48,891 nucleotides of DNA. It comes from Candidatus Multivoradales bacterium. GTDB lineage: Bacteria > Acidobacteriota > Thermoanaerobaculia > Multivoradales > J023. The position numbers and the translations under genes are program-made. The stretch is taken from assembly GCA_965248925.1 (NCBI GenBank), contig CBDFLE010000003.1:1-48891 (forward strand), read 5' to 3'. The notes under the pieces are model-generated. The model was not told the DNA's origin. It did no database searches and saw nothing but the letters and a program-made list of their open reading frames with translations. Shown here one piece after another: positions 9,246 through 31,601 of this stretch (its first letter is position 1; each line of letters opens with the position of its first letter).

Positions 9246-9254
9246 GCCGGGCCG

Positions 9255-12200
9255 ATGGCGTCGATCGAGCGGACTGCGTACCCGCGGTTCAAGACATCGG
9301 TATCGGCCCGAGAACTCATCGACGCGTTCACTCCAGCTAGCGAAGAGATCTTATGGGCGGCCGAGGCGACCCGTCAGGAAGGTAGCCAACTCACCTTGTT
9401 GGTGTTGCTGAAGTCGTTCCAGCGGCTTGGGTACTTCCCGAAGCTTGATGAGGTCCCGGCCGACGTCGTCCAGCACATCAGCCGAACGCTCGAGGTGGCC
9501 AGCGGGGCCGGAGATGCGGCTGCGACAAGAACGGTGGAGCGTTATCGAGTACTGGTTCGTTCGTTTGTCGGTGTGGTCCATGATTCGGTTGCGGTGCGCA
9601 AGCTGGTCACCGACACCATCGAGGTGGCCGCCAGGACCAAGGACAACCCGGCCGATCTGATCAATGTCGCACTGGAGGAACTGGTCAAGGCCCGCTACGA
9701 GCTTCCTGGCTACAGCACCCTCGACCGCGCAGCCACGACCCTTCGTACGAGTGTCAACCAGGCCTTCTTCTCCGAGATTGAGCAGCGTGTCGACCCTTCA
9801 AGCCGACAAGAACTGCTGGGCCTGCTGCAGGTAGACAGGACGTCGAGGCGCAGCCAATTCGATGAGCTGAAGCGCCCAGCTCGCCGGCCATCGCTGTCCC
9901 GGCTCAAAAATCACACGCAGATACTCAAGAGTCTCGACCGGATCGGCGACACTGATGGGTGGCTCGGTGATCTGCCACCTGCGAAGGCGGCGCACTTTGC
10001 AGGTGAAGCCCGAGTTCTGGACGCATCGGACATGCGTAAGGTTGGCGAGACGAAACGGCTCGCTCTTCTCGTGTCTTTGGTGCATCAGGCGCGAATCCGA
10101 GGTCGAGATGAACTCGCCGAAATGTTGTGTCGGCGCATGGCCTCGATCCACAAGCGTGGCCGTGACGATCTGGCCGACATTCGTGATCGGCAACGTACCG
10201 AAACCGAGCGACTCTGGAGCGTCTTTGGCAGCATGCTCGCTGCCGCACGCCAAGCAACCAACCCAATTAGCTCGTCGGCTGACGATGATGTGAGTAGTGG
10301 TGCGTTCGATGATGAAACCATCAAGCGTGCCGGTTCGCTTATGCTGGACTCGCTTGCCGCAGGCGGCGGCCTGTCAAAACTGACTAGGGAGCATGCTGAG
10401 ATCTCAGCCCATCACGGCAACAACTACATGCCGTTGCTGGCTCGACGGTTCCGGTCGCACCGCAAAGCACTGTTCGATGTGGCCGAGGTTCTCGACTTCG
10501 AATCAACCAGCGCCGACAGCTCCGTCCTTGAGGCACTCCGGTTCATCCAGGCACACCGACACCACACCCGCAAATACATCGACGACCCCAACGACGGGTT
10601 GGACACATCGTTCTGCTCGCAGAACTGGGCCCAAACGATCCGTGATCGTGACCGGCCAGGTGAATTGGTGCGAATCCATCTCGAGGCGTGCGTGTTCTCC
10701 TACCTCGCCGCCGAGCTGCGTAGCGGCGACGTCGCCGTCGACGGCTCAGACTCCTATGCGAACTTCTTCGACCAGCTGCTCACCCCAGCCGAGATCGAAC
10801 CGCTCGTCGCCGAGTACTGCGCAGAGGTTGGACTACCCGACACGCCCGAAGGATTCCGTGAACAGATCGAAACCCGGCTCGAACGCACCGCCGCCACCGT
10901 TGACGCTGGATACCCGAACAACGCCGACCTCATCATCGACGACGCCGGACACCCGACCCTGCGACGCCGCAAAGCCAAGGACCAACCAGCAGGAGTGACA
11001 GCGCTCGCCAAGGCAATCGAAGAACGGACCGATGAGGTATCTCTGCTGGACATCGTCACCCGCACCGCGCACTGGGTCCGCTGGTATCGCCACTTCGGGC
11101 CGCTCTCAGGTTCAGACCCCAAGCTCGCCGACCCGCTCGGACGATACTCAGTTATCACCTTCACCTACGGCACCAACATTGGTCCCCACCAAATGTCACG
11201 GCACCTCCGCGGCGCCGTCAGCGCCCACGAGATCTCCGCGCCAGGAAACCAACACATCACTGCCGCCAAACTCAACCAGGCCAGCGCCGATGTCATCGAT
11301 GCGTTCATGGGACTCGACGTCGCCCAGCTCTGGGGCGATGGCTCGAAAGTCGGCGCGGATGGAACCCAAATCGACACCTGGGACGATAACCTCCTCGCCG
11401 AAACCTCTGTCCGTTACGGCGGATACGGAGGCATTGCGTACCGTCACATCTCCGACACCTACATCGCCCTGTTCTCCCACTTCATCCCATGCGGCGTGTG
11501 GGAAGCCGTGTTCATCTTTGCCGGGCTGCTCAAGAACGAATCGAAGACGATCGAGCCTGAAGAGATCCATGCCGATACCCAAGGCCAATCGTTGCCGGCG
11601 TTCGGGCTCGCAACCATGCTCGGCGTCGAGCTGCTCCCACGGATCCGGAACTGGAAAGACCTCATCTTCTACCGGCCAAACGCCGACAGCCGCTACGACC
11701 ACATCGACATACTCTTCGGCAAAAGCGAAGTCATCGACTGGAAGCTGATCGAAACCCACTGGATCGATCTCATGCGCGTCGTCATCTCCATCCGCCAAGG
11801 CCGCATCTCATCATCAGCGCTGCTGCGACGACTCGGAAACCACTCCCGCAAGAACCGGATCTACAAGGCCTTCCGAGAACTCGGCCGAGCCATCCGCACC
11901 ACCGTGCTGCTCAGATACCTCTCACAAACCGAACTTCGAGACAGCATCACCGTTGTCACCAACCGCGTCGAGTCATTCCATAACTTCTCGAAATGGCTGT
12001 CGTTCGGCAACGCCGGCATCATCGCCGACAACGACCCCGACCACATGGAGAAAATCATCAAGTTCAACGAGCTGCTCGCCAACTGCGTCATCTTCTACAA
12101 CGCCGCCCAGCTCACCAACGTTCTCAACCAACTCGCTAGTGAAGGCCAGCCCGCCGAACGAGACGACGTCGCCGCCTTGTCGCCATACACCACCAAACAC

Positions 12201-12320
12201 GTCCTTCGATTCGGCGACTACGTCCTCGACCTCACACCACCAAGCGAAGTAATCAACGGACACCTTCATCTACACACCGACACCGCAGAACCCACCCTCG
12301 GTACACAACCCAAGGTTTGA
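9255..12320 (+). CDS. tnpA: Tn3-family transposase
   Basis: 1021 aa; MASIERTAYPRF start, ADGT, HADTQG, TNRVESFH DDE motifs; stop codon lies within the right IR. Confidence 0.95.
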   Translation: MASIERTAYPRFKTSVSARELIDAFTPASEEILWAAEATRQEGSQLTLLVLLKSFQRLGYFPKLDEVPADVVQHISRTLEVASGAGDAAATRTVERYRVLVRSFVGVVHDSVAVRKLVTDTIEVAARTKDNPADLINVALEELVKARYELPGYSTLDRAATTLRTSVNQAFFSEIEQRVDPSSRQELLGLLQVDRTSRRSQFDELKRPARRPSLSRLKNHTQILKSLDRIGDTDGWLGDLPPAKAAHFAGEARVLDASDMRKVGETKRLALLVSLVHQARIRGRDELAEMLCRRMASIHKRGRDDLADIRDRQRTETERLWSVFGSMLAAARQATNPISSSADDDVSSGAFDDETIKRAGSLMLDSLAAGGGLSKLTREHAEISAHHGNNYMPLLARRFRSHRKALFDVAEVLDFESTSADSSVLEALRFIQAHRHHTRKYIDDPNDGLDTSFCSQNWAQTIRDRDRPGELVRIHLEACVFSYLAAELRSGDVAVDGSDSYANFFDQLLTPAEIEPLVAEYCAEVGLPDTPEGFREQIETRLERTAATVDAGYPNNADLIIDDAGHPTLRRRKAKDQPAGVTALAKAIEERTDEVSLLDIVTRTAHWVRWYRHFGPLSGSDPKLADPLGRYSVITFTYGTNIGPHQMSRHLRGAVSAHEISAPGNQHITAAKLNQASADVIDAFMGLDVAQLWGDGSKVGADGTQIDTWDDNLLAETSVRYGGYGGIAYRHISDTYIALFSHFIPCGVWEAVFIFAGLLKNESKTIEPEEIHADTQGQSLPAFGLATMLGVELLPRIRNWKDLIFYRPNADSRYDHIDILFGKSEVIDWKLIETHWIDLMRVVISIRQGRISSSALLRRLGNHSRKNRIYKAFRELGRAIRTTVLLRYLSQTELRDSITVVTNRVESFHNFSKWLSFGNAGIIADNDPDHMEKIIKFNELLANCVIFYNAAQLTNVLNQLASEGQPAERDDVAALSPYTTKHVLRFGDYVLDLTPPSEVINGHLHLHTDTAEPTLGTQPKV

Positions 12321-12661
12321 ATGGCGGGTTTCGGCCGTATTCCGGTCGTCCCCCTCGAGGGGGTGGTGAACCACCGGCTGGGACTGTAGAGACCAGCGGG
12401 GCAAAGGACTACTGAAATATCTGTCGTTCGCTGGCTGCTGAAGCTCGACACAGAGCCCATTGTACGATTCTTGATATGACTTTGGCAGGGATAGAATCCT
12501 CTACGAGAGTTGGAACCTCGGAGAAATATAGCCTCATTCACAGCCAAATCGGCAGAAAGTGGATTCCTGTTGCTAGCTTGAGTTCGAGGGTTCGGCGTTG
12601 GCCGTCGTGTTGGCTAGTTCCTAGACATCCCTTTGTCTCTAGTTGAGTTACCTGTCTTAAG

Positions 12662-15600: not shown

Positions 15601-16808
15601 CCTTCAGTCTCGGCCGACTCACTCAGATCGAACGTGATGGCCAGCCGATCGACTTCCAATACGATCGATTCGGGCGGATGACGCAGGACGGCGAGCTGGC
15701 CTACAGCTTCGACACTAACGGCAACAAGAGCGAGATCCTGTACCCTGGTGGGGTGAGAGCGTTCTACGGATTCGATCACGCTGACCGTCACCAGACCCTC
15801 GATGCCGAGGTGCCAGGCCAGGGCATCCAATCGATCGTCACGGGAGCCCTCTACCAACCCATCGGCCCACTGCGCCAGCTGACGCGCGGCAATGGTGTCA
15901 CCGAAAGCCGCCAGCACGACAGCCGCTATCAGCCCGCCAGCATTACAGCGGTTGGCCCTGGCGGCACCTTGCTCGACTGGGACTACACCACCGACGGGGT
16001 CGGCAACATCACCGCCATCGGCGATCTGCTCGACCCGCTGAACAACCGCACCTACGCCTACCAGGAATACCAGTACTTCCTCACTCAGGGCGACGGCCCG
16101 TGGGGCAACCTAGCGTGGGCGTACGACAAAACCGGCAACCGTCTCAGCGAGACGCGGGACGGCGGCACCGACATCTACCAGTACCTCGCCAACGCTGCCG
16201 CGAGCGGCAATACCGCGAAACTCGACCAGATTGCCCTCGGTGCAGGTGGCAGTCGCGTCTACACCTTCGACGCAGCCGGCAACCAAATCGGCGTCGACGA
16301 GAACGGCGACCCGGTGGCTTACACGTTCGATGATGCTGGGCGCCTATCGGCCATCGACCACCCTTCAGCACAGGCCACCTCTACGATGTTCTATGACGGT
16401 CGCAGCTACCTACGCCAAGCAGTCGGCCGCGAGCCCGACACTTCGGGCAACGCTCTCTTCTGCGATGGCTTTGAAAGCGGCGACATCAGCGCTTGGGGCG
16501 ATCCTGGAGCCAGTAGCTGCACAGCTGAGGCCGTAACCGAAGCGGCCTACAGTTCCGACGGTGTGCTGCAACGGCGAGTCGGTGCCACCGAGGCCAATGC
16601 AGTGCTCTACTTCGGAGGACAGCCGGTAGCCCAGACCAGCGGGACCGGTGTAACCCACCTCACGGCAGACCACCTTGGCACACCGGTGCTAGCTTCTAGC
16701 GGTGTCGGCGGCTCGAAATGGAGCGGCGGATTCGAGCCCTTCGGCAGTGACTTCGCAAATGCCGGAGACGCAGGCGTTTTCTTGCGCTTTCCGGGGCAGT
16801 GGGCGGAT
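12662..16808 (+). repeat. 4147-bp inverted repeat, copy 1 (rhs core; partner 40517-44663)
   Basis: Colinear and highly similar from the shared RBS aaggagaattattgtg to the PGQWAD codons; scattered substitutions. Confidence 0.9.
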
Positions 16809-17441
16809 ATCGTATGGGCAAGAGACGTGATCTCCCACTACAACGTGCATCGCTGGTATCAGCCAGGCACTGGAAGATATCGCAGAAGTGATCCGCTTGG
16901 GCTTCCCGCCATCGCTAGACATCTAGGGAAGAGTCGGGACGAAATAAACCTCTTTACCTACGCAGTTGCTCGCCCGACGGTAGGTATCGACCGAATGGGT
17001 CTTGCCGTCACAACTCTCGGTTGCTCTGCCAGCCAGGACTCGAAGATCCAGATCGCGGCAGGGAATGCGGACGCAGCGTCGCAGAAGTGCCTGGATTGTG
17101 AGGACCGAAGGCCATTTAGAAAACTCATCCGAAGCCAAGGTACCAAGGGTGAACTAGTGTTCCGCTGCGTGAATTGGCCGGGGTCAGTGCGGCCTGGTGA
17201 TGAGACCCCCTCATGTGGTGACGTGGGAATTCGACTAAACGTACTTGAATTCGAGCTCACCGGGGAGATCTCCTTGACTCCCGCAGGAATCGGTGGAGTG
17301 CCAGGGTGCGGTTGTCTTGAGTCTACAATTCTGCATGAAGTTCTCCACCTACTGGGTGGTGATGGAATCGGCGGCATAAGACGTCACGACAGTGGGTCAC
17401 GTTTCAAATCCGAGAGGAGGTGCTTCTCATGCGCGAACTAG
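12675..17441 (+). CDS. Rhs/YD-repeat polymorphic toxin 1 with signal peptide and C-terminal HEXXH metallopeptidase-like tip
   Basis: RBS AAGGAG plus GTG at 12675, matching the paralogue's start; YD repeats; core motifs LRFPGQW, YN..RWY.P.TGRY...DPLG, DRMGL; tip contains ILHEVLH. Confidence 0.9.
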   Translation: MIRSVSLFLVISLLSLLGLPAALQAGTACSGVLTYLEQGLFADQPSNCSTGSRCYTPVISGATFTPEAGCDPAIESCAITIEVPIDFAGNHQNDPSASGFLYSFATVTVTPSGGGTLGTCGLSGAVIEEDHGTLSWGITSSCSDLMASYTITATACPCAFGLCPHCPKETTQVVDFSLSPLCPPPPPPSGCPEDEECSSCVGGGSGIGGSAGGGGGGASPPQSGPGALLRYHAGGVGHPTYPGSAGITAELGRYWSHDYAERIARDPDDSNVWLLTRYATFRRFTDLDMDGDYDRTIPSDEYRTLTKTPTGWTLLDLDGTLMQFDDTGLWSSTTDRNGNAKTATRDGTGRLTVVSFPDGRSETFTYSAGGKLDSITEVGIDSTTSRTWGYTYTGQDLTRIDRPDGTAWTFLYDDPTLPGYMTRMSLEGTDSSARIAGSWAYDPFGNVVQMWKGAANFNDAGAVDRWSMSFDDPQLPMVTTVTDPMGEISTYTLGRDSESRKPRLEQLEGSCPSCGTGPNSRLFYEDPAHPLRPTRQIDGGGTTTLTTYDANGQAISRVEALGTAEERETTWQRDLTYPALITEIERPSTTGNPLDFRRTTFTLSGQGNASDRIDEGVEDGQVFSYTTTTTYTAEGQPEDRDPPGYGTADVTTSAWDAARGGLVLASRTDPLIGSTLFGYDPFNRRTSVTDPNGVTSETQYDSLNRVLFSIQKGAVPAEDLITEQRYTVFGDLFQTVLPRGNVIEYSYDSAGRLVSIERKPDDLLGSHIERTFYTLDGFGHRVREELQSWDGASWTSASTTDYLYSTRCHLDQMIEGVGSPEQAITEYAYNCDGDLERLWDANHPSAGQTAPASSVYGYDPLDRLTTVSQPFGGAAGGQAVTTYGFDVQDHLNTVTDPEGTVTSYVHSDRNLLTRETSEVSGVTNHLYNEHGERTETTDARSISTLRTLDELDRVTLVDYPDDTLDVTYTYDDALVPFSLGRLTQIERDGQPIDFQYDRFGRMTQDGELAYSFDTNGNKSEILYPGGVRAFYGFDHADRHQTLDAEVPGQGIQSIVTGALYQPIGPLRQLTRGNGVTESRQHDSRYQPASITAVGPGGTLLDWDYTTDGVGNITAIGDLLDPLNNRTYAYQEYQYFLTQGDGPWGNLAWAYDKTGNRLSETRDGGTDIYQYLANAAASGNTAKLDQIALGAGGSRVYTFDAAGNQIGVDENGDPVAYTFDDAGRLSAIDHPSAQATSTMFYDGRSYLRQAVGREPDTSGNALFCDGFESGDISAWGDPGASSCTAEAVTEAAYSSDGVLQRRVGATEANAVLYFGGQPVAQTSGTGVTHLTADHLGTPVLASSGVGGSKWSGGFEPFGSDFANAGDAGVFLRFPGQWADIVWARDVISHYNVHRWYQPGTGRYRRSDPLGLPAIARHLGKSRDEINLFTYAVARPTVGIDRMGLAVTTLGCSASQDSKIQIAAGNADAASQKCLDCEDRRPFRKLIRSQGTKGELVFRCVNWPGSVRPGDETPSCGDVGIRLNVLEFELTGEISLTPAGIGGVPGCGCLESTILHEVLHLLGGDGIGGIRRHDSGSRFKSERRCFSCAN

Positions 17442-18049
17442 CAGTATTGCTCTTTCTCGCTTCTCTTGTAGTCAATTGCCTGTATCAGCCGCCAGAAGAG
17501 AATGCTGAGGTGGTCGCTGAACCACTCTTAGAATTAGAGCCTGAGTGTGCCCAGTTCTCGCTCAGGAAAATGGCGAAGAGTAGCCATGCCATCGAAGCGG
17601 TCTTCGCCAATGGCTGCGACAGAGAACTACTCCTAGGGCCGATACTTCGGCCGCACTATTGGTGGGAAGAGGGGGCTGACCCTGGGCACTTGGTGAGACT
17701 CAAGTTAGAAATCTATGGTCTTGACGACTCACCGGTCACGCTTCTTGGCCGACCGCCTACTGGCAAGTTGGTAATTCCTGGGCCGCGCGAGCTTCTTCGA
17801 TTGAGCAAAGGCGACGAGAAAGTGTGGAGCATCGACCTTTGTTCAGGGTGGTTCGCCCACCTCTTTCCAAGTCCTGGGAGGTACAGAGTTGAAGCAACAG
17901 CAGATAGCGCGCTTGGGAGCTGGATGCAGACAACTATGGATCCAAGATATGCGGCAATGAAAGATACTTTCAGCGAGTTGACGACTCTAGAAGGAAAGTT
18001 CGACGCCGACGTTCTTTTTGTTGACCTACAGGCCGTGCCTGTTTGCTAG
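17429..18049 (+). CDS. Putative immunity lipoprotein for Rhs 1
   Basis: Overlaps the toxin stop; RBS GAGGAGG; hydrophobic N-terminus ending in LVVNC (lipobox-like). Confidence 0.65.
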   Translation: MRELAVLLFLASLVVNCLYQPPEENAEVVAEPLLELEPECAQFSLRKMAKSSHAIEAVFANGCDRELLLGPILRPHYWWEEGADPGHLVRLKLEIYGLDDSPVTLLGRPPTGKLVIPGPRELLRLSKGDEKVWSIDLCSGWFAHLFPSPGRYRVEATADSALGSWMQTTMDPRYAAMKDTFSELTTLEGKFDADVLFVDLQAVPVC

Positions 18050-18098
18050 GTGTGCGGTCGCCGGTGGGCACCACGGCATTGAAGGCTCGGGCATCACC

Positions 18099-18129
18099 GA
18101 ACTGGAGCGGCGGATTCGAACCCTTCGGC
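18099..18129 (+). pseudogene. Orphan rhs core fragment (WSGGFEPFG)
   Basis: gaactggagcggcggattcgaacccttcggc nearly matches 16715-16745 and the corresponding Rhs 2 segment. Confidence 0.6.
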
Positions 18130-18243
18130 CGCGCGCCAGGCCGAGGTGATCGCGAGCATCCGGAAAGAGCTGGAGCAAGTCCGCAGAGAGGTGGCACAGC
18201 TCAAGGAAGCCATGGGGCAAACGCTCGGCTGCCAGTTCGATCT

Positions 18244-18281
18244 GGGGGTCGAGGAACAATGGAACGAAAACGCACCCTAAG
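18244..18281 (+). repeat. 38-bp Tn3/Tn1000-type terminal IR (left; partner 37371-37408)
   Basis: gggggtcgaggaacaatggaacgaaaacgcaccctaag has the GGGG...TAAG signature and matches the reverse complement of 37371-37408 at 33/38. Confidence 0.8.
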
Positions 18282-18869
18282 AGCCGACCTGTGAAGTCCG
18301 ATACCGTTGGCGAGTGCCTAGGGAGGCGCTCATCCAGCGGCTGTCGCCTACGATCTATGAGCACATCAATCTATACGGCCGGTAGGACTTCTCCAACCTC
18401 GTCGCACCACCCTCAGGAGAGCTTCGACCGCTCCAGGTTGAGTAGGGGTGAATCGAAAACGACGCTTTTTGTCGATTCACTACGGGTACCCCTACCCGGG
18501 TGCTCTTGAAAAGAAAGGGCCTCGGCAAGCAACGTGGACCGCGTTTGAGCGCTGGCGACGCGGCGGTTGGGCTGCCATGTAAGCTCTTGACCCCGCTGGC
18601 AACACGGCAGGGTGGCCCACGGTTTTTTACGCTCCCCAGTACGCGGAGGCGATGAATAGTGAGCAGTTGATGGTATGCTGAGACACTTACTTACCGTGGT
18701 ACAAACGTGGAGCAGCTTAGCCTGACTGGCAGCCTCAGCAGAGCGTTGCAACTCTACTTCGGTCAACAGAGACGCATGCACCGAGCGCGGCCTACATTCA
18801 TCGGTTATCAGCTATTTGTCGGCGACGAACGCTGTGGATAGAGTTACGGGAGCCACAAGGAGCCCACAA

Positions 18870-19202
18870 ATGACAGAGTTCCTTCTTAATGACCGCAAGA
18901 TCGTCAACGTCCGCCTGCCGAACGGCGCGGTGGCGCATGTCGAAGCTCGCGACTTCGGTGGCGAAGAGCGTATTGCTGCAGAGATTCCCAACTTTGAGGA
19001 ACTGATGACCCCGATAGAGGGAATCGCCTCGAGCCTGAGTCGTGTCTGGGACCGGGTCGCGCCCCAGAAGGCGAGCGTCGAGTTCGGGCTTCAGGTCGCG
19101 GTCGAGGCCGGCAAGCTGACCTCGCTTTTCGTCCAGGGCAGTGGCGAGGCAAACCTCAAGATCTGCCTGGAGTGGAGCCGACCGCCGTCATCCTCGGACT
19201 GA
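18870..19202 (+). CDS. Trypsin-co-occurring domain protein (Trypco1/CU044_2847-like)
   Basis: RBS AAGGAG plus ATG at 18870; signature P..ASVEFG..V.VE.GKL...V.G.GEANLKI.LEW; directly upstream of a trypsin-domain gene. Confidence 0.85.
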   Translation: MTEFLLNDRKIVNVRLPNGAVAHVEARDFGGEERIAAEIPNFEELMTPIEGIASSLSRVWDRVAPQKASVEFGLQVAVEAGKLTSLFVQGSGEANLKICLEWSRPPSSSD

Positions 19203-19221
19203 GGCACTGTCGCCTACAACG

Positions 19222-21963
19222 ATGAGCGAGAGCCTCAGAACACGCCTCAGCCGCTGCGTTGTCCGGGTGGGAAGCGACTCGAAGTTCGGCACGGGCTTCT
19301 TCGTCGCTTCGAATCGGATCGTTACCGCAGCTCATGTGCTCGTACCGGCAAAGCCAGGAGACACTGTGCAACTAGAGCAGGCTGGCACGGTTTTCTCCGG
19401 CAAGATACTCCACCTCGGAGATCCCTCTGCCGACGATCTCGCCCTGCTCGAAGCCGATCACGACGAAGAGGTCTGGGCTTGCTTCGGCACAGGTGCACAC
19501 CTCGGAGATCGCTTCTACACCTTCGGCTTCACGCAGGACCATTCTGGAGCTGAGTCGGTCACGCTCTCCTTCGAGGGAACCGCCACGCGCGGCGGCGTCG
19601 AGTTACTCAAGTTTAAGGAGGGGCAGCTGGAGACGGGGATGAGCGGTGCGCCGGTGCTCAACCTGCGCACAGGCCTGGTCAGCGGCGTGCTCGTCATCAG
19701 CCGGAATCGCCGAATGGACCTGGGAGGCCTCGCCGTACAGGCACGTACCGTGCTTGAGACGATTCCGCAGCTTGAGCAGACCGGACGGATCCATTTCGCA
19801 AGCGCACGGGCCTGGAAGCGACTGGCTTCGCCCTTCCGAGGGATCGATCTCTCCACCGAGGCTTACCACGAGTGGCTCTTTCCGCAGGATCCGATCGATG
19901 TCGAGGACGCCTTCGTCGAGCCCGCCTACCGGCTGATCGAGTACCGGGAGTTCGATCGCTTCGAGCCCTCGCCCAGAGACTTTGTCGCTGATGCCATCTC
20001 CATCCTCAAGTGCGAGGAGCTCTTGTTCATTTTCGGGCCCTACGGCTCGGGAAAGACTCTCCTGACGAAGATCCTCCAGCGCCACCTCTGGGACCAGGGA
20101 TACGAGGTGCACTTCTTCCGCTGTAGCGATCTCTACCAGCGAATCAAGGTTCTCGAGCGCTTCTCGGCAAAGCAGGAGCCCGAGGACCCTCCCATGGTGA
20201 TCGCTCTCGATGGCTACGACGAGACAAACCTGCTGCGTCGGGACCGCAAGGGGGTCAAGCGCGAGTTCCTTCAGAGGATCGTCGAGATCTCCAAGAACCC
20301 AGGCGTTTTCCTGATCCTGAACTCCCGGCTCATCCCTCTGGATGAGGAGAGCATCTACTTGGGGATCAGCGGGCTGCTCTACGACGAGCTCCGTGCTGAG
20401 GTCACGACGTTCATCGAGCTCGATGCCTTCCGCACCCAGCAGATCGAGCAGTGGCTCAACGCGAGCGCCAACGAGCACGCCAAGCGGGGAAGCGAGGAGC
20501 GCCTCTTCCGCTCCGACCTGCGCCACCTCCACAAGCACCTCGCTGCCGCCTGCAAGAACCCGCTTTTTCTCTACATGCTCTCGACCCGCTTCTATGAGAG
20601 CGGGTTTTCGGGCATCGAAGATATCTACGAGCTATACCGCTCGTTCGTCGACAAGACGGTAACGGGCAAGTTTCGCGGCGAGCGCTCCAAAGCTCGCTCG
20701 ATCGCCGAGATCTCGAGGAGCTATCGCCGATTCTTGAGAGGCATGGCGCTTGAGATCAGCGCGGCCAACGACTTCGTGTTCGATGCGAGCAACCTGAACG
20801 CCTGGAACCTCGATCCTAATCTCGAGATCTACTCGATCTCCTACGAGAGGGTCCAAGACACCGTGGACCGCACGGCCCGGGAGATTCTCGCTCCCAAGGC
20901 TCTCGAGGACCTGCTCGAAGAGCGCCTGACCTGGAACGTACTGACCTGCTACTTCCTCGAGGAATCCGCGGGCCGGTGGCGGTTCAGCGACAACAACATC
21001 CTCTTCTTTCTCAATGCGGAGGTCTTCCTCGAAGCACTCGCAGGCGCTGCCGGAACCGACTCCGACCAAGACCCTCTCGCCACCTTTCCGCAAGCTCTGC
21101 GCAGAAGCGTTCCGCTGCATCCGCTCTCAATCGAGCTCTTGATGTCTCGGCTGGTTTCGATGCCACCGAGACAGCAGCAGTCCATCCGGGACTTCCTGAA
21201 GGCCCTGGTCGAAGACCAGCGCCTTCTGAAGCTCTGGCGGGCTACCGAGCCCGCGCTGTCTGCCTCCTATCGGCGCATCGAGACCGTGATGGCTCTCGCC
21301 TTCCTGAAGCTCTATCAGGGCAGCCACCAGCTCATCCCGCGCTTTCTCCCTGAGCTCGGAAAGCACGCCCGGGAGCTTGCCTACCTGGACGAGGTCGCCT
21401 TCAACATCTTTCGCGCCTTTTTCCGCGGGATCACAGTCAAGCACGGCTTCTTCGAACTCCAGAACTTCTCGGGATTCAACTTCCAGCGCTCCCGCTTCGT
21501 CGCTACCCAATTCGACATTTGCGACTTCATCGACCCTGCTGCGGACGGGCTCAAGCTCGAAGCCTGCTGCTTTCGCCTCTGCAAGCTCGAGCCCGTGCGA
21601 GCCCGCGAGATCTCCGGATCGGCCCGCTTCGTTCAGTGCACGGTCGATTTAGAGATCCGGGACCCAGGCAGCCTCGAGCTCGAGTTCGACCACTGTCACA
21701 TCAAGAACCTCCACCTCTACGCCAATCGGCGCTCGAGCGAGAACAAGGTCCAGATCGCCTTCGCCAGCTGCAAGATCGACCACCTGATCCTGAGGAAGCT
21801 CGACATCAGCAGCCTTGAGATAGCAGATTCCATCTACCCACAGCTCAAGCTTGAGGGCTCCCGTGCTCGCGTGAACATCCAAGACTCCGAGCGCACTTCG
21901 CGGAAGGTGCTCGGAACCGACGGCCAGAGCCAGGTCACTCTGAACGGAGAGCGCGTCGGCTAG
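19222..21963 (+). CDS. Trypsin-like serine protease fused to NACHT/STAND NTPase and pentapeptide-like repeats (NLR-like)
   Basis: Triad TAAHV / DLALL / GMSGAP; Walker A GPYGSGKT, Walker B IALDGYDE, LILNSR, KNPLFL; C-terminal FSGFNFQRSRFVATQFDICDF-type repeats. Confidence 0.85.
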   Translation: MSESLRTRLSRCVVRVGSDSKFGTGFFVASNRIVTAAHVLVPAKPGDTVQLEQAGTVFSGKILHLGDPSADDLALLEADHDEEVWACFGTGAHLGDRFYTFGFTQDHSGAESVTLSFEGTATRGGVELLKFKEGQLETGMSGAPVLNLRTGLVSGVLVISRNRRMDLGGLAVQARTVLETIPQLEQTGRIHFASARAWKRLASPFRGIDLSTEAYHEWLFPQDPIDVEDAFVEPAYRLIEYREFDRFEPSPRDFVADAISILKCEELLFIFGPYGSGKTLLTKILQRHLWDQGYEVHFFRCSDLYQRIKVLERFSAKQEPEDPPMVIALDGYDETNLLRRDRKGVKREFLQRIVEISKNPGVFLILNSRLIPLDEESIYLGISGLLYDELRAEVTTFIELDAFRTQQIEQWLNASANEHAKRGSEERLFRSDLRHLHKHLAAACKNPLFLYMLSTRFYESGFSGIEDIYELYRSFVDKTVTGKFRGERSKARSIAEISRSYRRFLRGMALEISAANDFVFDASNLNAWNLDPNLEIYSISYERVQDTVDRTAREILAPKALEDLLEERLTWNVLTCYFLEESAGRWRFSDNNILFFLNAEVFLEALAGAAGTDSDQDPLATFPQALRRSVPLHPLSIELLMSRLVSMPPRQQQSIRDFLKALVEDQRLLKLWRATEPALSASYRRIETVMALAFLKLYQGSHQLIPRFLPELGKHARELAYLDEVAFNIFRAFFRGITVKHGFFELQNFSGFNFQRSRFVATQFDICDFIDPAADGLKLEACCFRLCKLEPVRAREISGSARFVQCTVDLEIRDPGSLELEFDHCHIKNLHLYANRRSSENKVQIAFASCKIDHLILRKLDISSLEIADSIYPQLKLEGSRARVNIQDSERTSRKVLGTDGQSQVTLNGERVG

Positions 21964-22058
21964 GAGTCTGAGTAGCAATGGAACAGAAACGTACGCTAAG
22001 CCGCGAGGATTTCTCTACCCAGGGTCCCGGGCATAATCGCCCAAAAATATACGCTCAG
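21963..22058 (+). repeat. Two orphan Tn3-type IR remnants (21963-22000; 22021-22058)
   Basis: ggagtctgagtagcaatggaacagaaacgtacgctaag resembles the 18244 IR; agggtcccgggcataatcgcccaaaaatatacgctcag resembles the 34157 IR. Confidence 0.6.
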
Positions 22059-22149
22059 CTTCCTTATGAGCCCGCAGCGATCCTTTGCATCGCAGCCTCG
22101 ACTTGAGTTCTGACAGCAGAGTTTTCGGGTTGCAGGGCAGCGGTGGAGA

Positions 22150-22485
22150 CCCAAGAGCCTGAAGCACCAAGGCCAGGTTCGATCGACGGATGGCCACTTC
22201 GGGATGGTCTTCGCCGAGGTTCTCAAGGTCCGACGCCAGCGTCTGCTCAAGAAGCCCCTTGGCGCCTTCAAGATCCCCAAGAGCTTGAAGCACCAAGGCG
22301 AGCCTCGTCCGGTGGATGGCTACTGAAGGATGCTCTTCGCCGAACGAATGAAGGTGCGATTCGAGAGCAAACTTGGAGAGCTTCCTTGCGCGAGCAAGAT
22401 CCCCGGCGGAGTGAAGCGCGAGCGCGATGCGCCTGGGCAGCTCTGTTCTCGCAGAATCCTTAGCATTCAGCACCGCCGGAGCCAT
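22150..22485 (-). pseudogene. TPR (kinesin-light-chain-like) protein fragment
   Basis: Two to three GEEHPSVAI..LALVLQALGDL repeats, then an unrelated tail; bounded by IR remnants. Confidence 0.7.
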
Positions 22486-22584
22486 GCTGACCGCAGCATC
22501 CAGATGACCCCGGTTCGGTAAGTAGGGCCGGAAGCCGTCCGCAAGCTCGATCTGCTGAGCGGAGGAGCTCAGGGCGGATAATCT

Positions 22585-22622
22585 GCTAGCGTCAATTACT
22601 GTAGCTTCAGGCCTCGAAACCC
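22585..22622 (-). repeat. Degenerate Tn3-type IR remnant
   Basis: gctagcgtcaattactgtagcttcaggcctcgaaaccc is similar to 37607-37644. Confidence 0.5.
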
Positions 22623-22887: not shown

Positions 22888-25800
22888 ATGTTCCACGATT
22901 CGATGAAAGCATGTTTGCTCTCCGTCTCGGTGGTCTGGGCGCTGTCGCTCGGTGCCGCTCCTGCGTCGGCGCAGCCGCCGGCCGGCTACTACGACACTGT
23001 CGACATCACCAATGGCACGACTCTGCGGCTGACGCTGCACGACGTGATCGACGACCACACCCGATTCCCCTACACCGCCTCGACTACCGACACCTGGGAC
23101 ATCGTCAACCTCGCCGATGAGGACCCCAACAACACCTCCAACATCATCGACCTCTACAAGAACGCTAGCTACACCAAGATACCCGGTGGCGTCGGTGCCT
23201 ACAACCGCGAGCACAGTTGGCCAAAGTCCTACGGCTTCCCCAACGACGGCACTGACAACTATCCCTACACCGACACCCACCACCTGTTTGCGTGCGACGG
23301 GGGATATAACTCATCGCGCAGCAACAAGCCCTTTCGCTATTGCGACGCCTCCTGTTCCGAGAATCCAACCGACTTCAACGATGACCGCGGGGGTGGCACC
23401 GGCCTCTATCCCGGCAACTCGAACTGGACCTCCGGCTCCTTCGCCCAAGGCACCTGGGAGACCTGGGACGGCCGCAAGGGAGACGTGGCGCGAGCCATCT
23501 TCTATATGGACCTGCGCTACGAAGGCGGCAACCACGGCGGCACCGGCATCGCCGAGCCGGATCTGATCGTCACCGACAGCGAGGCGCTGATCGACAGCGG
23601 CAACACCGGCGCCAACGAGTCGGTGGCCTACATGGGCATGCTGACGGTGCTCTTGCAGTGGCACGCGCAGGATCCGCCCGATAGCCGTGAGCTGTGGCGC
23701 AACGAGATCGTGTTCAGCTTTCAGGGCAACCGCAACCCGTTCATCGACCACCCTGAGTGGGTCGAGTGCCTCTACAACGACCTTTGTGGCGGCGATGGCG
23801 ACACCACGCCACCCGCACCGCCCACCGGCCTGGTCGCGGTGGCCGGCACCGGCTTGGTCGACCTGATCTGGAACGCCAGCCCGGAAAGTGATCTGGCCGG
23901 TTACCACGTCTACCGTGCGACGAGCAGCGGCGGTCCCTACGCCCGGGTCACCGGAACGCTGCTGACGAGCGCCTTCTACACCGATAGCGCCGTAACCGAC
24001 GGCACGACTTACTTCTACGTCATTCGGGCGGTCGACACCTCGGCCAATGCAAGCGGCGACAGCACCGAGGCTTCGGCAACTCCGACCGGCGGCGGTAGCG
24101 GCGGTGGTGGCGACCTGCTGCTCTCCGAGGTGCTCTACGATGTCTCGAGCGGCGATGACGGGTTCGAGTGGGTCGAGCTACTCAACGCGGGTAGCTCCGC
24201 GATCGACCTGTCAAGCTTCTGCCTCGGCAACGGCGGCACCAGCTACACCTCGAGTACCGCCCAGCTGGCGGGCACCATCGCCGCCGGTGAAACCTTCGTG
24301 GTCGGCGGTCCGACGTCTAGCTCCACCAACGGCAATCCGGTGTTCGATCAGGTGCTGAACTTCAGCCCCGACTTCCAGAATTCGGGGACCACCGGCGACG
24401 GTGTGGCGCTCTTCGATGTGCCCTGCGCCCAAGTCAGCGGCGCTACAGTGCCAGTGGATGCCGTGGTCTACGGCACGAACAACAACAGCGGCTTGATCGA
24501 CGAGACCGGGACGGCTAACGCCCCGGAAGTTGGCGACGCGTCAGCGGGCTCCTCGATCGAGCGGCTCGATCTGGTGGGTGCGTGGCAGATCCAGAACGCT
24601 CCGACCCCCAACAGCTCACCAGTGGGGCCTCCGGTCGGCAACCAGGCACCCAGCGCGACCATCCTTGGGCCGTTGAACGGGGCGGCGGTTGGCGAGGGTT
24701 CTGCGGTCAGCTTCTCCGGCTCGGCCACTGACGTCGAGGACGGCAACCTCACCAGCAGCCTAAGCTGGAGCTCAAGCCTCGATGGCGTGATCGGTTCCGG
24801 CGGTGCCTTCTCCGCCGTGCTGTCTGTCGGTAGCCATACGATCACTGCCTCGGTCATCGATTCCGGCGGTCTCAGCGGGTCTGCCGTGATTACCGTCACG
24901 ATCAACCCCAACTCCGCTCCCAACGTAACGATCACCGCGCCGGCTAACGGCGCTTCGTTCGACCAGGGCACGGCGATTTCATTCGCGGGCTCAGCCAGCG
25001 ACCCGGAGGACGGCAGCCTGACCGCCAGCCTCAGCTGGTCGTCGAATCTCGACGGCGTGATCGGCGCTGGCGGCTCGTTTTCGGCGGTACTGTCGCTCGG
25101 TTCGCACACCGTCACCGCGTCGGTGACCGATTCCGGCGGCCTGGTCGGCTCTTCAGCGATCAACGTCACCGTCAATGCGGTGTCCGGCAGCGCCGGGGAT
25201 CTGCTTTTGAGCGAGGTTCTCTACGACACCAGCGGTACGGACGACGGCCTGGAGTGGGTCGAGATCTACAACAACGACACGGTCGCAGTCGACCTGGCGG
25301 GCTTCAGCCTGGGCAGTGGCGGTAGTGACTACACCACCAGCACGCTGCAGCTCTCGGGCACGATTGCGCCAGGCGCGACCTTCGTCGTCGGTGGCCCGAC
25401 GTCGAATGCCACCAACGGCAATCCGGTGCTCGATCTGGCAGCGAACTTCAACCCTGATCTACAGAACTCGGGCACCTCCGGTGACGGAGTGGCGTTGTTC
25501 AACTTGCCCGCTACGGCAGTCACCGCGGTGACGGTACCCATCGATGCTGTGGTCTATGGACCGAACAACAACAGCAGCCTGATTGACGAGAGTGGCGCTG
25601 CCAACGCCCCTGAGGTTGGCGACGCACCGTCTGGCTCTTCGATCGAACGGCTCGACCTGGCCGGCAACTGGCAGATCCAGTCGGCCCCAACGCCCAACGC
25701 GACACCGCTCAACCCACCGGTGAATACTGCGCCGAGTGTGACCATCAGTGCGCCAACCGGGGGGTCCAGCTTCGACCAGGGCAGCTCGATCAGCTTCGCT

Positions 25801-26583: not shown

Positions 26584-26814
26584 GTGTCAGATTTGCAATG
26601 GCGGTGCGGGCTCCGAGCCCGCCCGCCTAGGTGTCATGAGGTGCTCGGCTGGTCAATCACGACTGGTTCGTGCCGCCATCAGCTCCCCAGCAGTCTCACG
26701 CAGTCCGGGGAGCTTGGGGTAGCGGGCGCATTCGTGCAAAAAGTTACGGTTTCTCGCGCCTCCGGGCTGCTGAGACGCTCGCAGAGCGTAACTTTTCGCA
26801 CGAGAACGGGTGGC

Positions 26815-29757
26815 CTATGAGTCGTCTGTGTCGATGAAGTAGGTGCCATTGGGCATGACGTGCTTGAACGGTAGCAACGAGATGTGGGAGAGCTCCTCGT
26901 CCTCGATCGCCTCGCCTTCGGCGCGAAGCCGGTCGACGGTCTGCCCGATCCTCACGGTGTTCCAGTAGAGGATCGCGTTCGAGACGAGGCTCAGGCAGCT
27001 CGCCTTGTTCATGATCTCGATGTAGTCGCCGGTCTTGAAGTCGCCTTGGTCGGCGAAGTGGATCCAGCGCGAGAGTCCTTGGCGGTGTTCGCCTTTGTTC
27101 AGCTGCCGCTGGACAGCTCGGCGGAGTTCTGGATCAGTGCAGTAGCGCAGGATGTAGTTGGTCTTGACGAGTCGGCCGAGGTGGCGAACGGCGTTCGAGA
27201 GCCGATCGTGAGGTGATCCGAGGGTGAGTCGCTGAACCACGACGTGCGCCGGCGCTGTGCGAAGCCTGAGCGACCAGGCGATCTGCATCATCGGATCCCA
27301 CTGCTCGGCGATCAGATCGAGGTCGACTGTGTTCTTGAGCAACGATCCGAAGTCACCTTCAGCCCGTCGCCCCGAGGGTCGGTATAGCTGTTGACTCTTC
27401 AGGTCCTTGATCCTCGGCATGAAGAAGTAGCCGAGAAGGTAGCAAAGGCCGAAGATGATCTCGGTATAGCCGTCCGTGTCTGTCGTGTGCTTCCCGGGGC
27501 GGAGGATTGTGTTGTTGTTCAGCAAGCCGTCGAGTACGTAGAGCGCCTCTCTCGGCCCGCACGAGATCGCGCGGGTGCCGAATACGGAGTACTGGTCGGA
27601 GATGTGTGTGTAGATACTGATGCCCTTCTCGTAGTACCCGAAATACCGTGGGTAGTACGAGGCGAGGAGGCTATCGGCTCGGATTCTGAAGCGCTGCGCA
27701 TCGGAGGACGACGTCTCGCCGTCCCCGTGGACCGAACTCAACGGCAAGCCATGATGCGCGTCAACGATGACTGAGTTGGCTGTCTGGATCGTCTCCTCGC
27801 GAACGTAGTGCTGGAGGACTCGACGGAGCATGTCCAACGTCACCTTCGGGACGCTCGCACTCATCGAGACCACGCCAAGGTTCGTCGCTTGAGAGATGAT
27901 CGCTGAGAGCAACGATCGGTAGAACTGCTTCGGCCGCGACTGATGGTCCTCGAGAGGAACGAAGCACCGCGAGAATCCCGTGGCACGATCCACATCCATC
28001 AGGAGCTGCTCGACTCGAACCAACGGCAGGCTCGCGTCGATGGTTTGTTGCAGCCGGCTTGGCGGCAGCTTCTTTGTGTCGTCGCGGCGTAGCTTGAGCT
28101 TGCCGCTTTCGACTCGGGCGAAACGATCGACTCCGTACCGACCGTTGGCCCGACGCAGAGCGTCCTCGCACTCACCAACGAGCCGATCACACACGCCATC
28201 CGATGTCGGGTGGCCGAGATCGTCGTACGAGTCCTCTTTCTCTTCGCCCCACCGCGTTTCACTGAGCAAGAGATCCCAGAACGAGACGTGCTCTTTGCTG
28301 TCCGGAATGTAGACGTCGCCCGAACGAAGTGAATCGCGAAGCGCGATCGCTAGGCCGGTCTCCCACGCGTTCCGGTTGAGCGAACCCGGTCTTTCTCCGG
28401 TCAAAGCCCCACGGAGCTCTCCCGGTACGAAGCTGCGCGGAGCGTTCGCCGGCAGGCTCTTGAGTTCCCCGTCGTCGAGCTGTCGCACGATCTGAATCGC
28501 CTTGAGCAACTCCTCGCTTCCGGCCTCGCCGGCGAACGGGAGGCGGACGAACTCTGCGAAGTACTTGCGAAGCGTGGGATACCGAGCGACCAGGCGGCTT
28601 CCGAGGCCATGCTCCTCGACCCACTGAAACTGCTTGAGGTCTTCGACCGATTCCCTGAGCCTCTCCTCCTCGGCCGAGTCCCAGAAGGTGTCCCGGGTTC
28701 GCGCCTCGTCCTCGGGCCAGGCCAGCAGTGCGTGCGTCGTGCGAAGGACCGCGTCGATGGCTCTTTTCTGTCGCTTCCGGAGCGCTCGGTACTGCTCCTC
28801 GTGCGCGGACTTCGCGTCGCGCCGCATGTCGAGCACGTACTTGTCGTGCATTTGAACGAGGTGGTCGAGAAGCGTCTTGCGCCGCTCGGAGAGAAAGCAA
28901 GTCATCAAGGCGTACCGCTTCGGATCGCGGAACCGTTTCAGGTCCGTGGCGTCGTACCCACGCGCAGTCTCAGCTAGGTAGGCAGCGAACGCGCCGTTGA
29001 TCTTCGGTCGCTCGAAGCCGAGTCGGAAGAACTCGTCGAGCTCGCGGTAGCGCTCAAGGTACCGCTTCATCGCGGCGGGAGTCGGGGACGGAGGGTACTC
29101 CTTGAGGCGACCGAAGAACGAGCGTTGATCTTCTGGCGGTGCCTCAAGGAAGGAGTCGATGCTCCGACGGAGTTCGGGAGCTAGTCCAGAGACGATCGAT
29201 TCGAAGAGCTGAGCGTGCGCCGCGTTGCAGACCGTGTTGACCAGACGATCCAGAGTGGAGGCCGCCGGGAGAACGATCCGCGTCCTCAAGAGCCGCCGTT
29301 CGGCCCGCTCGAATAGCGTCGCAGGGAGATCTCCATGATGGGCTTCGCCATCGAGCCAGTCCGTGAGCTCGTCTCGTGCGGTTTCGTCGAAACGCTGAAA
29401 GCCTGCGAGCTCGAGGAGCTTCCCCTGATGCTCTGACCGAGTCGCCTTCCTTTCCGGGGCCTCGACAAAGAGTGGCGCCGGCTGTCCGAGTTGGACGCAG
29501 AGATGGGCGACGATCTTCGGTGGCGCGTGCGTTGGGTCCCTCAGGAACCGACCGAACAGGCGCAGGGTGCATAACTGCAGCGCATTCGCCAGGCGATACC
29601 GACTCCGGAAGCCGCCACGCAGGTCGTCCACGTCGACTGTGTCGAGCGACCAGTTCCGCGTGAGTTCGTCATCGGACAACCGCTCTGGGAGAACGATCGG
29701 TCGCCGACGTCGTCGAGGGACCGGGAGATGCTCGTGAATGGGTTGGGGTTCGCGCAT
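26815..29757 (-). CDS. tnpA: Tn3-family transposase
   Basis: 980 aa; SSSDAQRF, HTTDTDGYT, QLNKGEHR DDE motifs. Confidence 0.95.
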   Translation of the reverse strand: MREPQPIHEHLPVPRRRRRPIVLPERLSDDELTRNWSLDTVDVDDLRGGFRSRYRLANALQLCTLRLFGRFLRDPTHAPPKIVAHLCVQLGQPAPLFVEAPERKATRSEHQGKLLELAGFQRFDETARDELTDWLDGEAHHGDLPATLFERAERRLLRTRIVLPAASTLDRLVNTVCNAAHAQLFESIVSGLAPELRRSIDSFLEAPPEDQRSFFGRLKEYPPSPTPAAMKRYLERYRELDEFFRLGFERPKINGAFAAYLAETARGYDATDLKRFRDPKRYALMTCFLSERRKTLLDHLVQMHDKYVLDMRRDAKSAHEEQYRALRKRQKRAIDAVLRTTHALLAWPEDEARTRDTFWDSAEEERLRESVEDLKQFQWVEEHGLGSRLVARYPTLRKYFAEFVRLPFAGEAGSEELLKAIQIVRQLDDGELKSLPANAPRSFVPGELRGALTGERPGSLNRNAWETGLAIALRDSLRSGDVYIPDSKEHVSFWDLLLSETRWGEEKEDSYDDLGHPTSDGVCDRLVGECEDALRRANGRYGVDRFARVESGKLKLRRDDTKKLPPSRLQQTIDASLPLVRVEQLLMDVDRATGFSRCFVPLEDHQSRPKQFYRSLLSAIISQATNLGVVSMSASVPKVTLDMLRRVLQHYVREETIQTANSVIVDAHHGLPLSSVHGDGETSSSDAQRFRIRADSLLASYYPRYFGYYEKGISIYTHISDQYSVFGTRAISCGPREALYVLDGLLNNNTILRPGKHTTDTDGYTEIIFGLCYLLGYFFMPRIKDLKSQQLYRPSGRRAEGDFGSLLKNTVDLDLIAEQWDPMMQIAWSLRLRTAPAHVVVQRLTLGSPHDRLSNAVRHLGRLVKTNYILRYCTDPELRRAVQRQLNKGEHRQGLSRWIHFADQGDFKTGDYIEIMNKASCLSLVSNAILYWNTVRIGQTVDRLRAEGEAIEDEELSHISLLPFKHVMPNGTYFIDTDDS

Positions 29758-29777
29758 GGCAACTCCCCCCGGTGAGC

Positions 29778-29890
29778 TGGTTCAAGAAAACGTCCGTTTT
29801 CGAGAAGCCCCAGAAATCGAACCGGAGGTCTGTTAAAACGGGGGTTTTGTGTATCTCGAAAACCACTCTTGAAACGATCCTATCGAAATG
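29778..29890. promoter_or_regulatory. Probable res site of transposon B
   Basis: Palindrome tcaagaaaacgtccgttttcgaga and AT-rich subsites between the divergent tnpA and tnpR. Confidence 0.55.
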
Positions 29891-29922
29891 CAACCATGGT
29901 CGCGAGTTTCGAGAGGACCTAC

Positions 29923-30522: not shown

Positions 30523-30638
30523 GGGCTAATCTGAGGAGGGATAGCTGATGTCGAGTAAGAGTGCGAAGAGTATAAGCGAGGGGCAGACAACCGCCGCGAC
30601 CAGGTGGCCAGCCTCGACGAGGTGGAGAGGATTATCCT

Positions 30639-31229: not shown

Positions 31230-31601
31230 CGAGCGGAAACATGGCGATGACTTTGGAGCAGCGCTATACGATCTCGGCGTGCTGCCGAGAAGTTCATCAC
31301 TGCCGACCGCACGAATCGAGAGGCACAGCACGAAAGGAGGCGCGCGCCGGCATGAGGACGCCTACCGTGAACATGACCCGGATGAGCCTTGCTTCGCGGT
31401 GGCGCTTCCCCCTGAATCAGACGAGGAGTTGCCAGGTAGCCTTCCAGTGGACCAGTGGTGACCGGTCTGTCAACGGTATTCCGACGCTGCGGATCGTTCG
31501 GGCTGGACTTCTTACAAGCGCTCGGCCGCCCGGAGCGCCATGATCGAGTCCTTTAAGCGGGGGGAAACCGTAACTTTTTACACGAATGCGCCCGCTACCC
31601 C

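Follow-up and report, generated by a model that had tools for sequence, protein, structure and literature searches.

A Trypco1 gene and a trypsin-nSTAND3-pentapeptide gene as a probable Pepco-protease immune module on a small replicon of a Candidatus Multivoradales bacterium

The question raised by this locus is what a small protein of the Trypco1 family and a trypsin-like protease built into a STAND NTPase do together. The two genes, here called gene A and gene B, lie next to each other on contig CBDFLE010000003.1 of a Candidatus Multivoradales bacterium. The contig, 48,891 bp long, was taken whole as our window and belongs to an assembly of 7.98 Mb in six contigs (5.22 Mb, 2.36 Mb, 285 kb, 48.9 kb, 41.5 kb, and 29.5 kb). 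The original prediction, made from the letters of this DNA without database searches, had proposed a plasmid-borne immune system whose effector is the protease. According to our analysis, the two genes probably form an immune module that belongs to the Pepco-protease class and is of the abortive-infection type, a reading to which we assign a probability of roughly 0.65. From homology and gene order, we read gene B as the putative sensor and licensing protease, and gene A as the putative latent pore-forming effector.

Both genes were found where they had been predicted, and the sequence matches of gene A place it in the Trypco1 family: it matches the Pfam model PF19493 at E 5.4e-16 (59.4 bits, cut-off 24.6) and the NCBIfam model CU044_2847_fam at 1.6e-15 (57.6 bits, cut-off 23). 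We computed column counts and hydrophobic moments on an alignment of 30 Trypco1 sequences (alignment A3). The C-terminal motif of this alignment reads ANL[KE]I[TS][LM]EW; in gene A it takes the form ANLKICLEW (A94-W102), followed by the 8-residue tail SRPPSSSD. Trp102 is kept in 28 of the 30 sequences, position 98 is occupied by isoleucine in 20 and by valine in 9, and a median of 3 residues follows the conserved tryptophan. Since Ile98 is the sole strongly conserved isoleucine near the C-terminus of gene A, the bond between Ile98 and Cys99 is the candidate scissile bond. An amphipathic helix is predicted at about residues 39-58, the N-terminus looks beta-stranded, and hydrophobic moments predict two amphipathic beta-strands (residues 64-75 and 88-102); the helix together with the two strands would fit a protomer that gives a hairpin to a barrel. 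A simple scan of positions 18000-22600 found no sigma-70-like promoter, and its single terminator-like site, fewer than in shuffled sequences, lies inside gene B.

Gene B begins 19 nt after the stop codon of gene A, in the same orientation. Its open frame spans 19141-21963 and opens with a GTG at 19141; the start was set at the ATG at 19222 by the alignment of homologues. This alignment comprises 34 full-length sequences, and the regional identities given below are means over the 33 homologues. The frames of both genes are open and full-length and align end to end with those of their homologues. Gene B has a tripartite build, with an N-terminal effector, a central STAND NTPase with Walker A and Walker B motifs, and a presumed C-terminal repeat sensor (Table 1). 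The N-terminal part matches Trypsin_2 (PF13365) at 7.3e-11, above the Pfam cut-off, and the protease part of the PADLOC model RT-Protease_XI at 3.4e-10; in the PDB, the family profile finds HtrA/DegP/Spl proteases over positions 6-200 (best 5.3e-11). The intact His-Asp-Ser triad of the original prediction is confirmed by the family, in which His38 is kept in 33/34, Asp72 in 34/34, and Ser141 in 33/34 members. The same is true of the nucleotide-binding motifs: Walker A is GPYGSGKT (aa 272-279) and Walker B is VIALDGYDE (aa 326-334), with K278 and D330 each invariant in the 34 sequences, as is the sensor-1-like R369. The label NACHT, in contrast, has to be replaced, as gene B matches nSTAND3 (PF20720) at 4.2e-8 (33.5 bits, cut-off 27.2) and gives no match to NACHT (PF05729) at E <= 0.1. 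Two relatives in which the shared part is limited to the NTPase and the C-terminal body clear the NACHT threshold (P0041 with 32.9 bits and P0052 with 32.4), and the gene B family is therefore NACHT-like.

In the region after the NTPase, conservation is the highest of the whole protein over the first two thirds (aa 421-640, 35.9% identity) and the lowest over the remainder (aa 641-735, 19.8%). A hypervariable C-terminal sensor was considered and is not clearly present, the least conserved stretch being aa 641-735 and not the solenoid. The repeat region starts with pentads carrying phenylalanine or leucine in register (LQNFS GFNFQ RSRFV ATQFD ICDFI and so on; 10 of 14 consecutive pentads), which are followed by longer beta-strand-like repeats. 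The predicted beta-solenoid-like character of this region is clear in the family profile but weak in the present copy. Profile positions ~745-880 match pentapeptide-repeat structures (McbG-like 2xt4 at 1.4e-9; QnrB1, MfpA, and 6fls), whereas the repeats of gene B reach 17.5 bits against Pentapeptide_4, with a cut-off of 38, and used alone against the PDB give a best E of only 0.54. Judged by these profile comparisons, the solenoid would belong to the pentapeptide type, with degenerate repeats in the present copy.

Table 1. Coordinates of the two genes, of their parts, and of the other features of the window.
Feature	Position	Strand	Remarks
Tn-1 (Tn3 family)	~7952-12362		imperfect 38-nt inverted ends at ~7952-7989 and 12325-12362; tnpA 9255-12320
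RHS-repeat protein, 1602 aa	12633-17441		
209-aa open reading frame (ORF)	17420-18049		overlaps the end of the RHS gene; no family match
Shine-Dalgarno-like AAGGAG	18857-18862	plus	7 nt 5' of the gene A ATG; read from the sequence
Gene A, Trypco1/Pepco family, 110 aa	18870-19202	plus	ATG at 18870, stop at 19202
Ile98 codon of gene A	19161-19163	plus	candidate P1 residue, by analogy to SsPepco Ile97
Gene B, 913 aa	19222-21963	plus	trypsin-like protease, nSTAND3 NTPase, helical region, pentapeptide-type beta-solenoid
Gene B protease domain, aa 1-200	19222-19821	plus	His38 in TAAHV, Asp72 in DDLALL, Ser141 in GMSGAP
Gene B STAND P-loop NTPase core, aa ~256-420	19987-20481	plus	Walker A, Walker B, LILNSR (R369)
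Gene B post-NTPase region, aa 421-735	20482-21426	plus	motifs ACKNPLFLY (aa 443-451) and WRFSDNNILFF (aa 586-596)
Gene B C-terminal repeat region, aa 736-913	21427-21960	plus	presumed sensor
TPR-only ORF, 156 aa	22015-22485	minus	TPR_12/TPR_10 repeats; 3' of the operon, opposite strand
Endonuclease I-Lamin Tail Domain protein, 1231 aa	22888-26583	plus	signal-like N-terminal segment, Endonuclease I, two Lamin Tail Domains, PKD/Big_7 repeats
Tn-2 (Tn3 family)	26715-31602		39-nt ends at 26715-26753 and 31564-31602, 97% complementary
Truncated Tn3 transposase gene copy	31586-32746		
ECF sigma factor	33588-34148		adjoins the AbiTii gene
AbiTii-family protein	34371-35276	plus	Pfam 4e-30, PADLOC 1e-31
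Integrase	35752-36864		adjoins the AbiTii gene
206-aa ORF	39294-39914	minus	downstream of and overlapping the second RHS gene; no family match
Second RHS-repeat protein, 1584 aa	39896-44650	minus	

The distribution of gene B indicates a rare and sporadic family. In a word-index search of 5.8 billion proteins, five relatives covered at least two thirds of gene B, at 35-49% identity, and when 1.84 billion cluster representatives (clusters at 50% identity) were searched with a HMMER profile, 544 matched at E <= 1e-30. Among the 150 best of these 544, 32 are full-length relatives of gene B and 36 share only the NTPase and the C-terminal body. Within the phylum, a gene B match at E <= 1e-30 occurs in 1 of 401 genomes, which is the one studied here, and Trypco1 lies above its cut-off in 4 of the 401. 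A scan of one genome per species located five loci, in metagenome-assembled genomes (MAGs) labelled Acidobacteriota, Bacillota, Bacteroidia, Synechocystis, and Bacteroidales; the family spans MAGs of Bacillota, Bacteroidia, and Cyanobacteria. The word-index search with Trypco1 only returned just gene A, and an alignment query was needed to recover its relatives. A megablast search of positions 17400-22500 against 72,556 plasmids gave no match, a tblastn search of gene B against plasmids matched one protease domain and nothing else, and a PHROGs search returned nothing useful. The ESM Atlas contains neither of the two proteins nor the homologue P0005. The matching sequencing runs are four, all from one sample of one study, which may be the source, and no RNA run is listed among them.

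The pairing of the two genes is conserved. That Trypco domains accompany trypsins, as the original prediction noted, was described in 2020 (PMC7159879), and it is borne out by our data: in all 7 loci that could be assessed, the gene directly 3' of Trypco1 encodes a peptidase, a count that leaves aside one locus cut by a contig end (L015), one below the cut-off (L016), and three plasmid hits (H4-H6). The partner is a trypsin-nSTAND3-pentapeptide protein at our own locus and at two related ones, L003 in a Bacillota MAG and L004 in a Bacteroidia MAG, the latter beside an integrase; there the upstream Trypco1 is detected at E 8.3e-17 and 4.3e-16, respectively. L003 and L004 are both of the related loci that have the trypsin head together with intact upstream DNA. 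At the other loci the Trypco1 gene is followed by a caspase-like CHAT protein (L012, G391:C4) or a subtilase of the Peptidase_S8 family (L014, G084:C192), both in same-phylum genomes, or by annotated serine proteases (L017 and L018). Three protease classes, namely trypsin, CHAT, and subtilase, are thus found beside Trypco1. The two annotated serine proteases are encoded on plasmids, one being a trypsin protein (Allocoleopsis) and the other a trypsin-nSTAND1-WD40 protein (Streptomyces). In the Synechocystis relative of gene B, CHAT replaces the trypsin domain, and the upstream DNA ends at the end of the contig. A metagenome scan gave four loci, none of which has both an intact trypsin head and upstream DNA.

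The relatives of gene B also exchange their parts. In the 36 relatives that share only the body (profile positions ~200-900), nSTAND3 is detected in 32 and Pentapeptide_4 in 31 at E <= 1e-3, and a pentapeptide cut-off is passed by three; the L003 relative passes those of Pentapeptide_3 and Pentapeptide. Six of these body relatives carry a recognisable alternative head (PRTase-CE in three, and CHAT, SMEK_N, and SIR2_2 in one each), which match the PADLOC effector models PRTase_III-A, chat, Aga_REase, and LmuA/ThsA; the remaining 30 have no Pfam domain at the head, and some have almost no N-terminal extension. Conversely, the protease clade, which covers profile positions 1-200, occurs in fusion with NACHT, NB-ARC, KAP, nSTAND5/6, WD40, TPR, HEAT, FGE-sulfatase, kinase, and BNR bodies. 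Interchangeable heads on a conserved NTPase-sensor body are a signature of antiviral STAND proteins, and the shuffling of heads and bodies among the relatives of gene B therefore follows the antiviral STAND-type pattern. Two distant body relatives, at 21-23% identity, come from viral contigs of IMG/VR, where YopX and ParB-methyltransferase genes are their neighbours. At two other body relative loci, L006 (2813-3532, minus strand) and L005 (3014-3615, minus strand), which sit in the Bacteroidales and Synechocystis MAGs, an RloB-like gene and a split Uma2 (restriction-endonuclease-like) gene adjoin; such neighbours are typical of defence islands.

How such a pair may act is suggested by published work. 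Kaur et al. named Trypco1 and Trypco2 as neighbours of trypsin-like peptidases in NTP-dependent conflict systems (PMC7159879), and Evans et al. merged the two into one family, Pepco (10.1101/2025.11.14.688446). The latter authors report that in Streptomyces subrutilus SsPepco lies directly 5' of a trypsin-bearing Avs4, and that the two, together with phage portal proteins, are toxic; Pepco and the protease serine are both needed, and deletion of Pepco abolished the toxicity. Pepco forms beta-barrels of 9-10 protomers that are stable to heat and detergent, and Avs4 cuts it after the conserved Ile97, freeing a C-terminal tail of ~2 kDa. SsPepco requires an amphipathic helix that includes L10, E15, and L17, and Pepco truncated exactly at Ile97 kills E. 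coli (all from 10.1101/2025.11.14.688446). Our pair resembles SsPepco-SsAvs4 in having a small Pepco gene directly 5' of a trypsin-STAND-sensor gene and a conserved isoleucine near the C-terminus of the small protein, and the course from sensing through protease activation and cleavage to a pore is expected to be alike. It differs in the body of gene B, which combines nSTAND3 with a pentapeptide-type beta-solenoid where Avs4 has a portal sensor.

We observed directly the domain content, the intact motifs, the gene pairing, the module swapping, the rarity, and the placement of the operon among the mobile elements of a small replicon; that gene A is cleaved, forms a pore, and kills the cell would follow by analogy with the published relative, and ligand-induced oligomerisation by analogy with Avs proteins. 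Gene B would act as an NLR-like (STAND) sensor, kept inactive in the resting state. Its C-terminal region, made of the helical part and the solenoid, would bind an invader-derived ligand, probably a phage protein, and the nSTAND3 NTPase would drive oligomerisation, by which the N-terminal trypsin-like domains would be brought together and activated. The protease would then cut gene A near its C-terminus, at the candidate site ANLKI/CLEW after Ile98, and the cut would let a beta-barrel oligomer, latent until then and probably assembled beforehand, become a pore that permeabilises the membrane and kills or arrests the cell before the invader spreads. Gene A is, on the model of SsPepco, most likely both the substrate and the killing effector. 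The original prediction, in which the solenoid senses and oligomerisation activates the protease, agrees with our findings and with the SsPepco-SsAvs4 experiments once the NTPase is corrected to nSTAND3 and other details are amended. Of the roles it had offered for Trypco1 (substrate, inhibitor, or cofactor), the first is favoured by Evans et al.; its choice of the protease as effector does not fit the same work, which makes Pepco the killer and the protease the licensing step (10.1101/2025.11.14.688446).

Other known systems share parts of this build. The ternary vWA-MoxR (VMAP) systems also combine the Trypco1 family with a neighbouring trypsin-like peptidase (PMC7159879); unlike them, our locus carries the protease on a STAND NTPase and not on a VMAP protein, and among the ORFs of the window that were scanned with Pfam, neither a vWA nor a MoxR gene was detected. 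Avs5 belongs to the same nSTAND3 PF20720 class, has the same tripartite order of effector, NTPase, and sensor, and finds an echo in a body relative with a SIR2 head (P0130). It is described as a SIR2-nSTAND3 protein with helical repeats (10.1101/2025.07.08.663546), and differs from gene B in its TPR/Sel1/PPR helical-repeat sensors, in its SIR2 effector, and in having no separate substrate gene; the PADLOC model of Avs5 does not match gene B at E <= 0.1. Avs1b, or AVAST type 1, likewise places an N-terminal serine protease on a STAND NTPase in a defence system. Its match is marginal and confined to the protease part (PADLOC E 0.021; NCBIfam 0.085, 9.9 bits against a cut-off of 1500), and gene B is not an Avs1b member. 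A bacterial gasdermin system was rejected, as there is no gasdermin-like gene among the scanned ORFs.

Several observations weigh against a Pepco-protease immune module. The pairing in its exact architecture is known from only three loci, the STAND body of gene B matches no PADLOC v2 or NCBIfam defence model, and its pentapeptide score remains below the cut-off. Gene A is likened to SsPepco by family name, and its Ile98 is a presumed counterpart of Ile97; its amphipathic helix lies mid-protein, where that of SsPepco is N-terminal, and one Streptomyces plasmid Trypco1 has leucine in the Ile98 column. A cut after Ile98 would free 12 residues from gene A and ~7 from most relatives, compared with the ~20 residues, or ~2 kDa, freed from SsPepco. 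Part of this evidence also favours an explanation that we regard as unlikely, namely that Trypco1 is not the killer but an adaptor, inhibitor, or chaperone, and that the activated protease cuts other cellular or phage proteins. It draws on the position of the helix and on the near lack of a tail after the tryptophan in most aligned Trypco1 proteins, when SsPepco has one of 2 kDa; in addition, Trypco domains were defined only by their co-occurrence with trypsin-like peptidases (PMC7159879), and a later paper treats them as adapter or effector-associated domains (10.1101/2023.09.22.558884). Against it stands the one tested system, in which deletion of Pepco abolished toxicity and truncated Pepco killed E. 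coli on its own (10.1101/2025.11.14.688446), and gene A does have the amphipathic helix and the hairpin expected in a membrane-active protein. Moreover, the partners of Trypco1 come from three unrelated protease classes, and a common substrate therefore fits better than a class-specific inhibitor.

The sequence gives no trigger, and the module could in principle answer something other than phage, such as plasmid maintenance or exclusion, an interbacterial toxin, or general stress. The operon comes immediately after an RHS toxin locus in a small replicon of the ParA/DnaB kind, such systems have been tied to multicellular and social bacteria and not to phage alone (PMC7159879), and Evans et al. 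allow in their discussion that protease-effector modules may respond to non-phage stress (10.1101/2025.11.14.688446). Nevertheless, we give such a trigger a rather low chance: relatives with the same body bear heads that match known anti-phage effectors in PADLOC, two of the distant ones are found on viral contigs, and characterised STAND systems of like build are reported to sense phage proteins (10.64898/2026.01.04.697583). It is highly improbable that the operon is an inactive remnant without present function, left between transposons. Its surroundings are decayed, with the 156-aa TPR fragment, an orphan RHS-tip-like stretch, and the truncated Tn3 transposase copy, and the pentapeptide score of gene B is weaker than those of its relatives; both frames, however, are open from end to end, the catalytic and NTP-binding residues are all intact, and a strong ribosome-binding site precedes gene A.

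If genes A and B are indeed a Pepco-protease module, its novelty is narrower than the original prediction had supposed. The pairing has been known since 2020 (PMC7159879), and the characterisation of one member followed in 2025 (10.1101/2025.11.14.688446), so that the guessed mechanism is largely known already and the module logic is not new. The combination of trypsin, STAND, and pentapeptide repeats is not peculiar to this family either, as 7 of 40 scanned protease-clade relatives carry pentapeptide repeats on a different, NACHT-type NTPase. In PADLOC, which had been proposed as a check of novelty, the STAND body has no counterpart among the models; the protease part is matched by RT-Protease_XI and marginally by Avs1b, as reported above. 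The gene B sensor family is the only part with real novelty. Our literature searches found no paper on the Trypco1 and trypsin-nSTAND3-pentapeptide architecture. Evans et al. list FGE, transmembrane STAND, and peptidoglycan-binding sensors, and the word "pentapeptide" is absent from their main text (10.1101/2025.11.14.688446). At least 90 defence-associated STAND families of distinct structure, and the triggers of Avs7-21, are reported in a 2026 preprint; neither "pentapeptide" nor "Pepco" appears in the main text of that preprint, and the gene B body could be one of those families (10.64898/2026.01.04.697583).

What the solenoid itself may contribute is suggested by its structural matches. 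McbG, Qnr, and MfpA are stand-alone DNA-mimic proteins that protect gyrase. The family profile of gene B matches them over ~75-135 residues at E 1e-9 to 1e-7, which implies, as far as profile matches can tell, a right-handed quadrilateral beta-helix; in gene B, by contrast, the repeats make up the C-terminal part of a STAND protein, and in the present copy they are degenerate. We put forward as a doubtful conjecture that the nSTAND3-pentapeptide body represents an undescribed antiviral STAND family, in which a DNA-mimicking beta-helix sensor would trap a phage DNA-binding protein (for example a polymerase, a terminase, or a topoisomerase-like protein) and interchangeable heads would provide the outputs (Pepco pore, SIR2, PRTase, or caspase-like). 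Such a sensor would depart from the known Avs proteins, which use helical or propeller repeats.

Turning to the replicon, the claim that the operon is plasmid-borne is plausible but unproven: the contig encodes ParA-like and DnaB-like proteins and a tRNA scan of it found none, but no terminal overlap was found at its ends as a sign of circularity. An Rfam scan of the window found no family. The operon is preceded by an RHS toxin gene and the 209-aa ORF, which may be an immunity gene. A 32-nt piece of the RHS gene (16714-16745, encoding ...WSGGFEPFG...) is repeated at 18098-18129 with 94% identity, which suggests that the latter stretch, just 5' of the Trypco1 operon, is the remnant of an orphan RHS tip. 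The second RHS locus mirrors the layout of the first. On the other side of the operon, the TPR ORF contains an 84-nt direct repeat (22150-22233 and 22276-22359) and matches the NCBIfam model FxSxx_TPR at 7.4e-15, far under the cut-off of that model; it looks like a piece of a longer TPR protein, which may have been associated with a STAND NTPase. The Endonuclease I protein that follows is probably a secreted or surface nuclease, and its gene has internal duplications (24198-24497 and 25284-25583). The AbiTii gene, placed between the sigma factor and the integrase, is a second defence-type gene of the replicon.

Two Tn3-family elements flank this part of the window. We considered whether the operon is the cargo of one of them and ruled this out, since the inverted repeats put it between Tn-1 and Tn-2, outside both; Tn-2 itself encodes a minus-strand tnpA, a resolvase, and a 196-aa ORF. 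The final 1.19 kb of Tn-1 (11173-12362) is copied, ~99.5% identical, at 31599-32788. As this copy of the Tn-1 end lies directly beside the right end of Tn-2, the insertion target of Tn-2 appears to have been a second Tn-1 copy, of which the left part is now absent.

For the biology of these systems, the locus adds a rare sensor family that has no PADLOC v2 model and whose presumed sensor is made of pentapeptide-type repeats. It could also show whether the Pepco mechanism extends to Trypco1 proteins with nearly no C-terminal tail. The trigger of gene B would extend the catalogue of bacterial NLR-like recognition, and it would put to the test the use of a DNA-mimic fold as an immune receptor.

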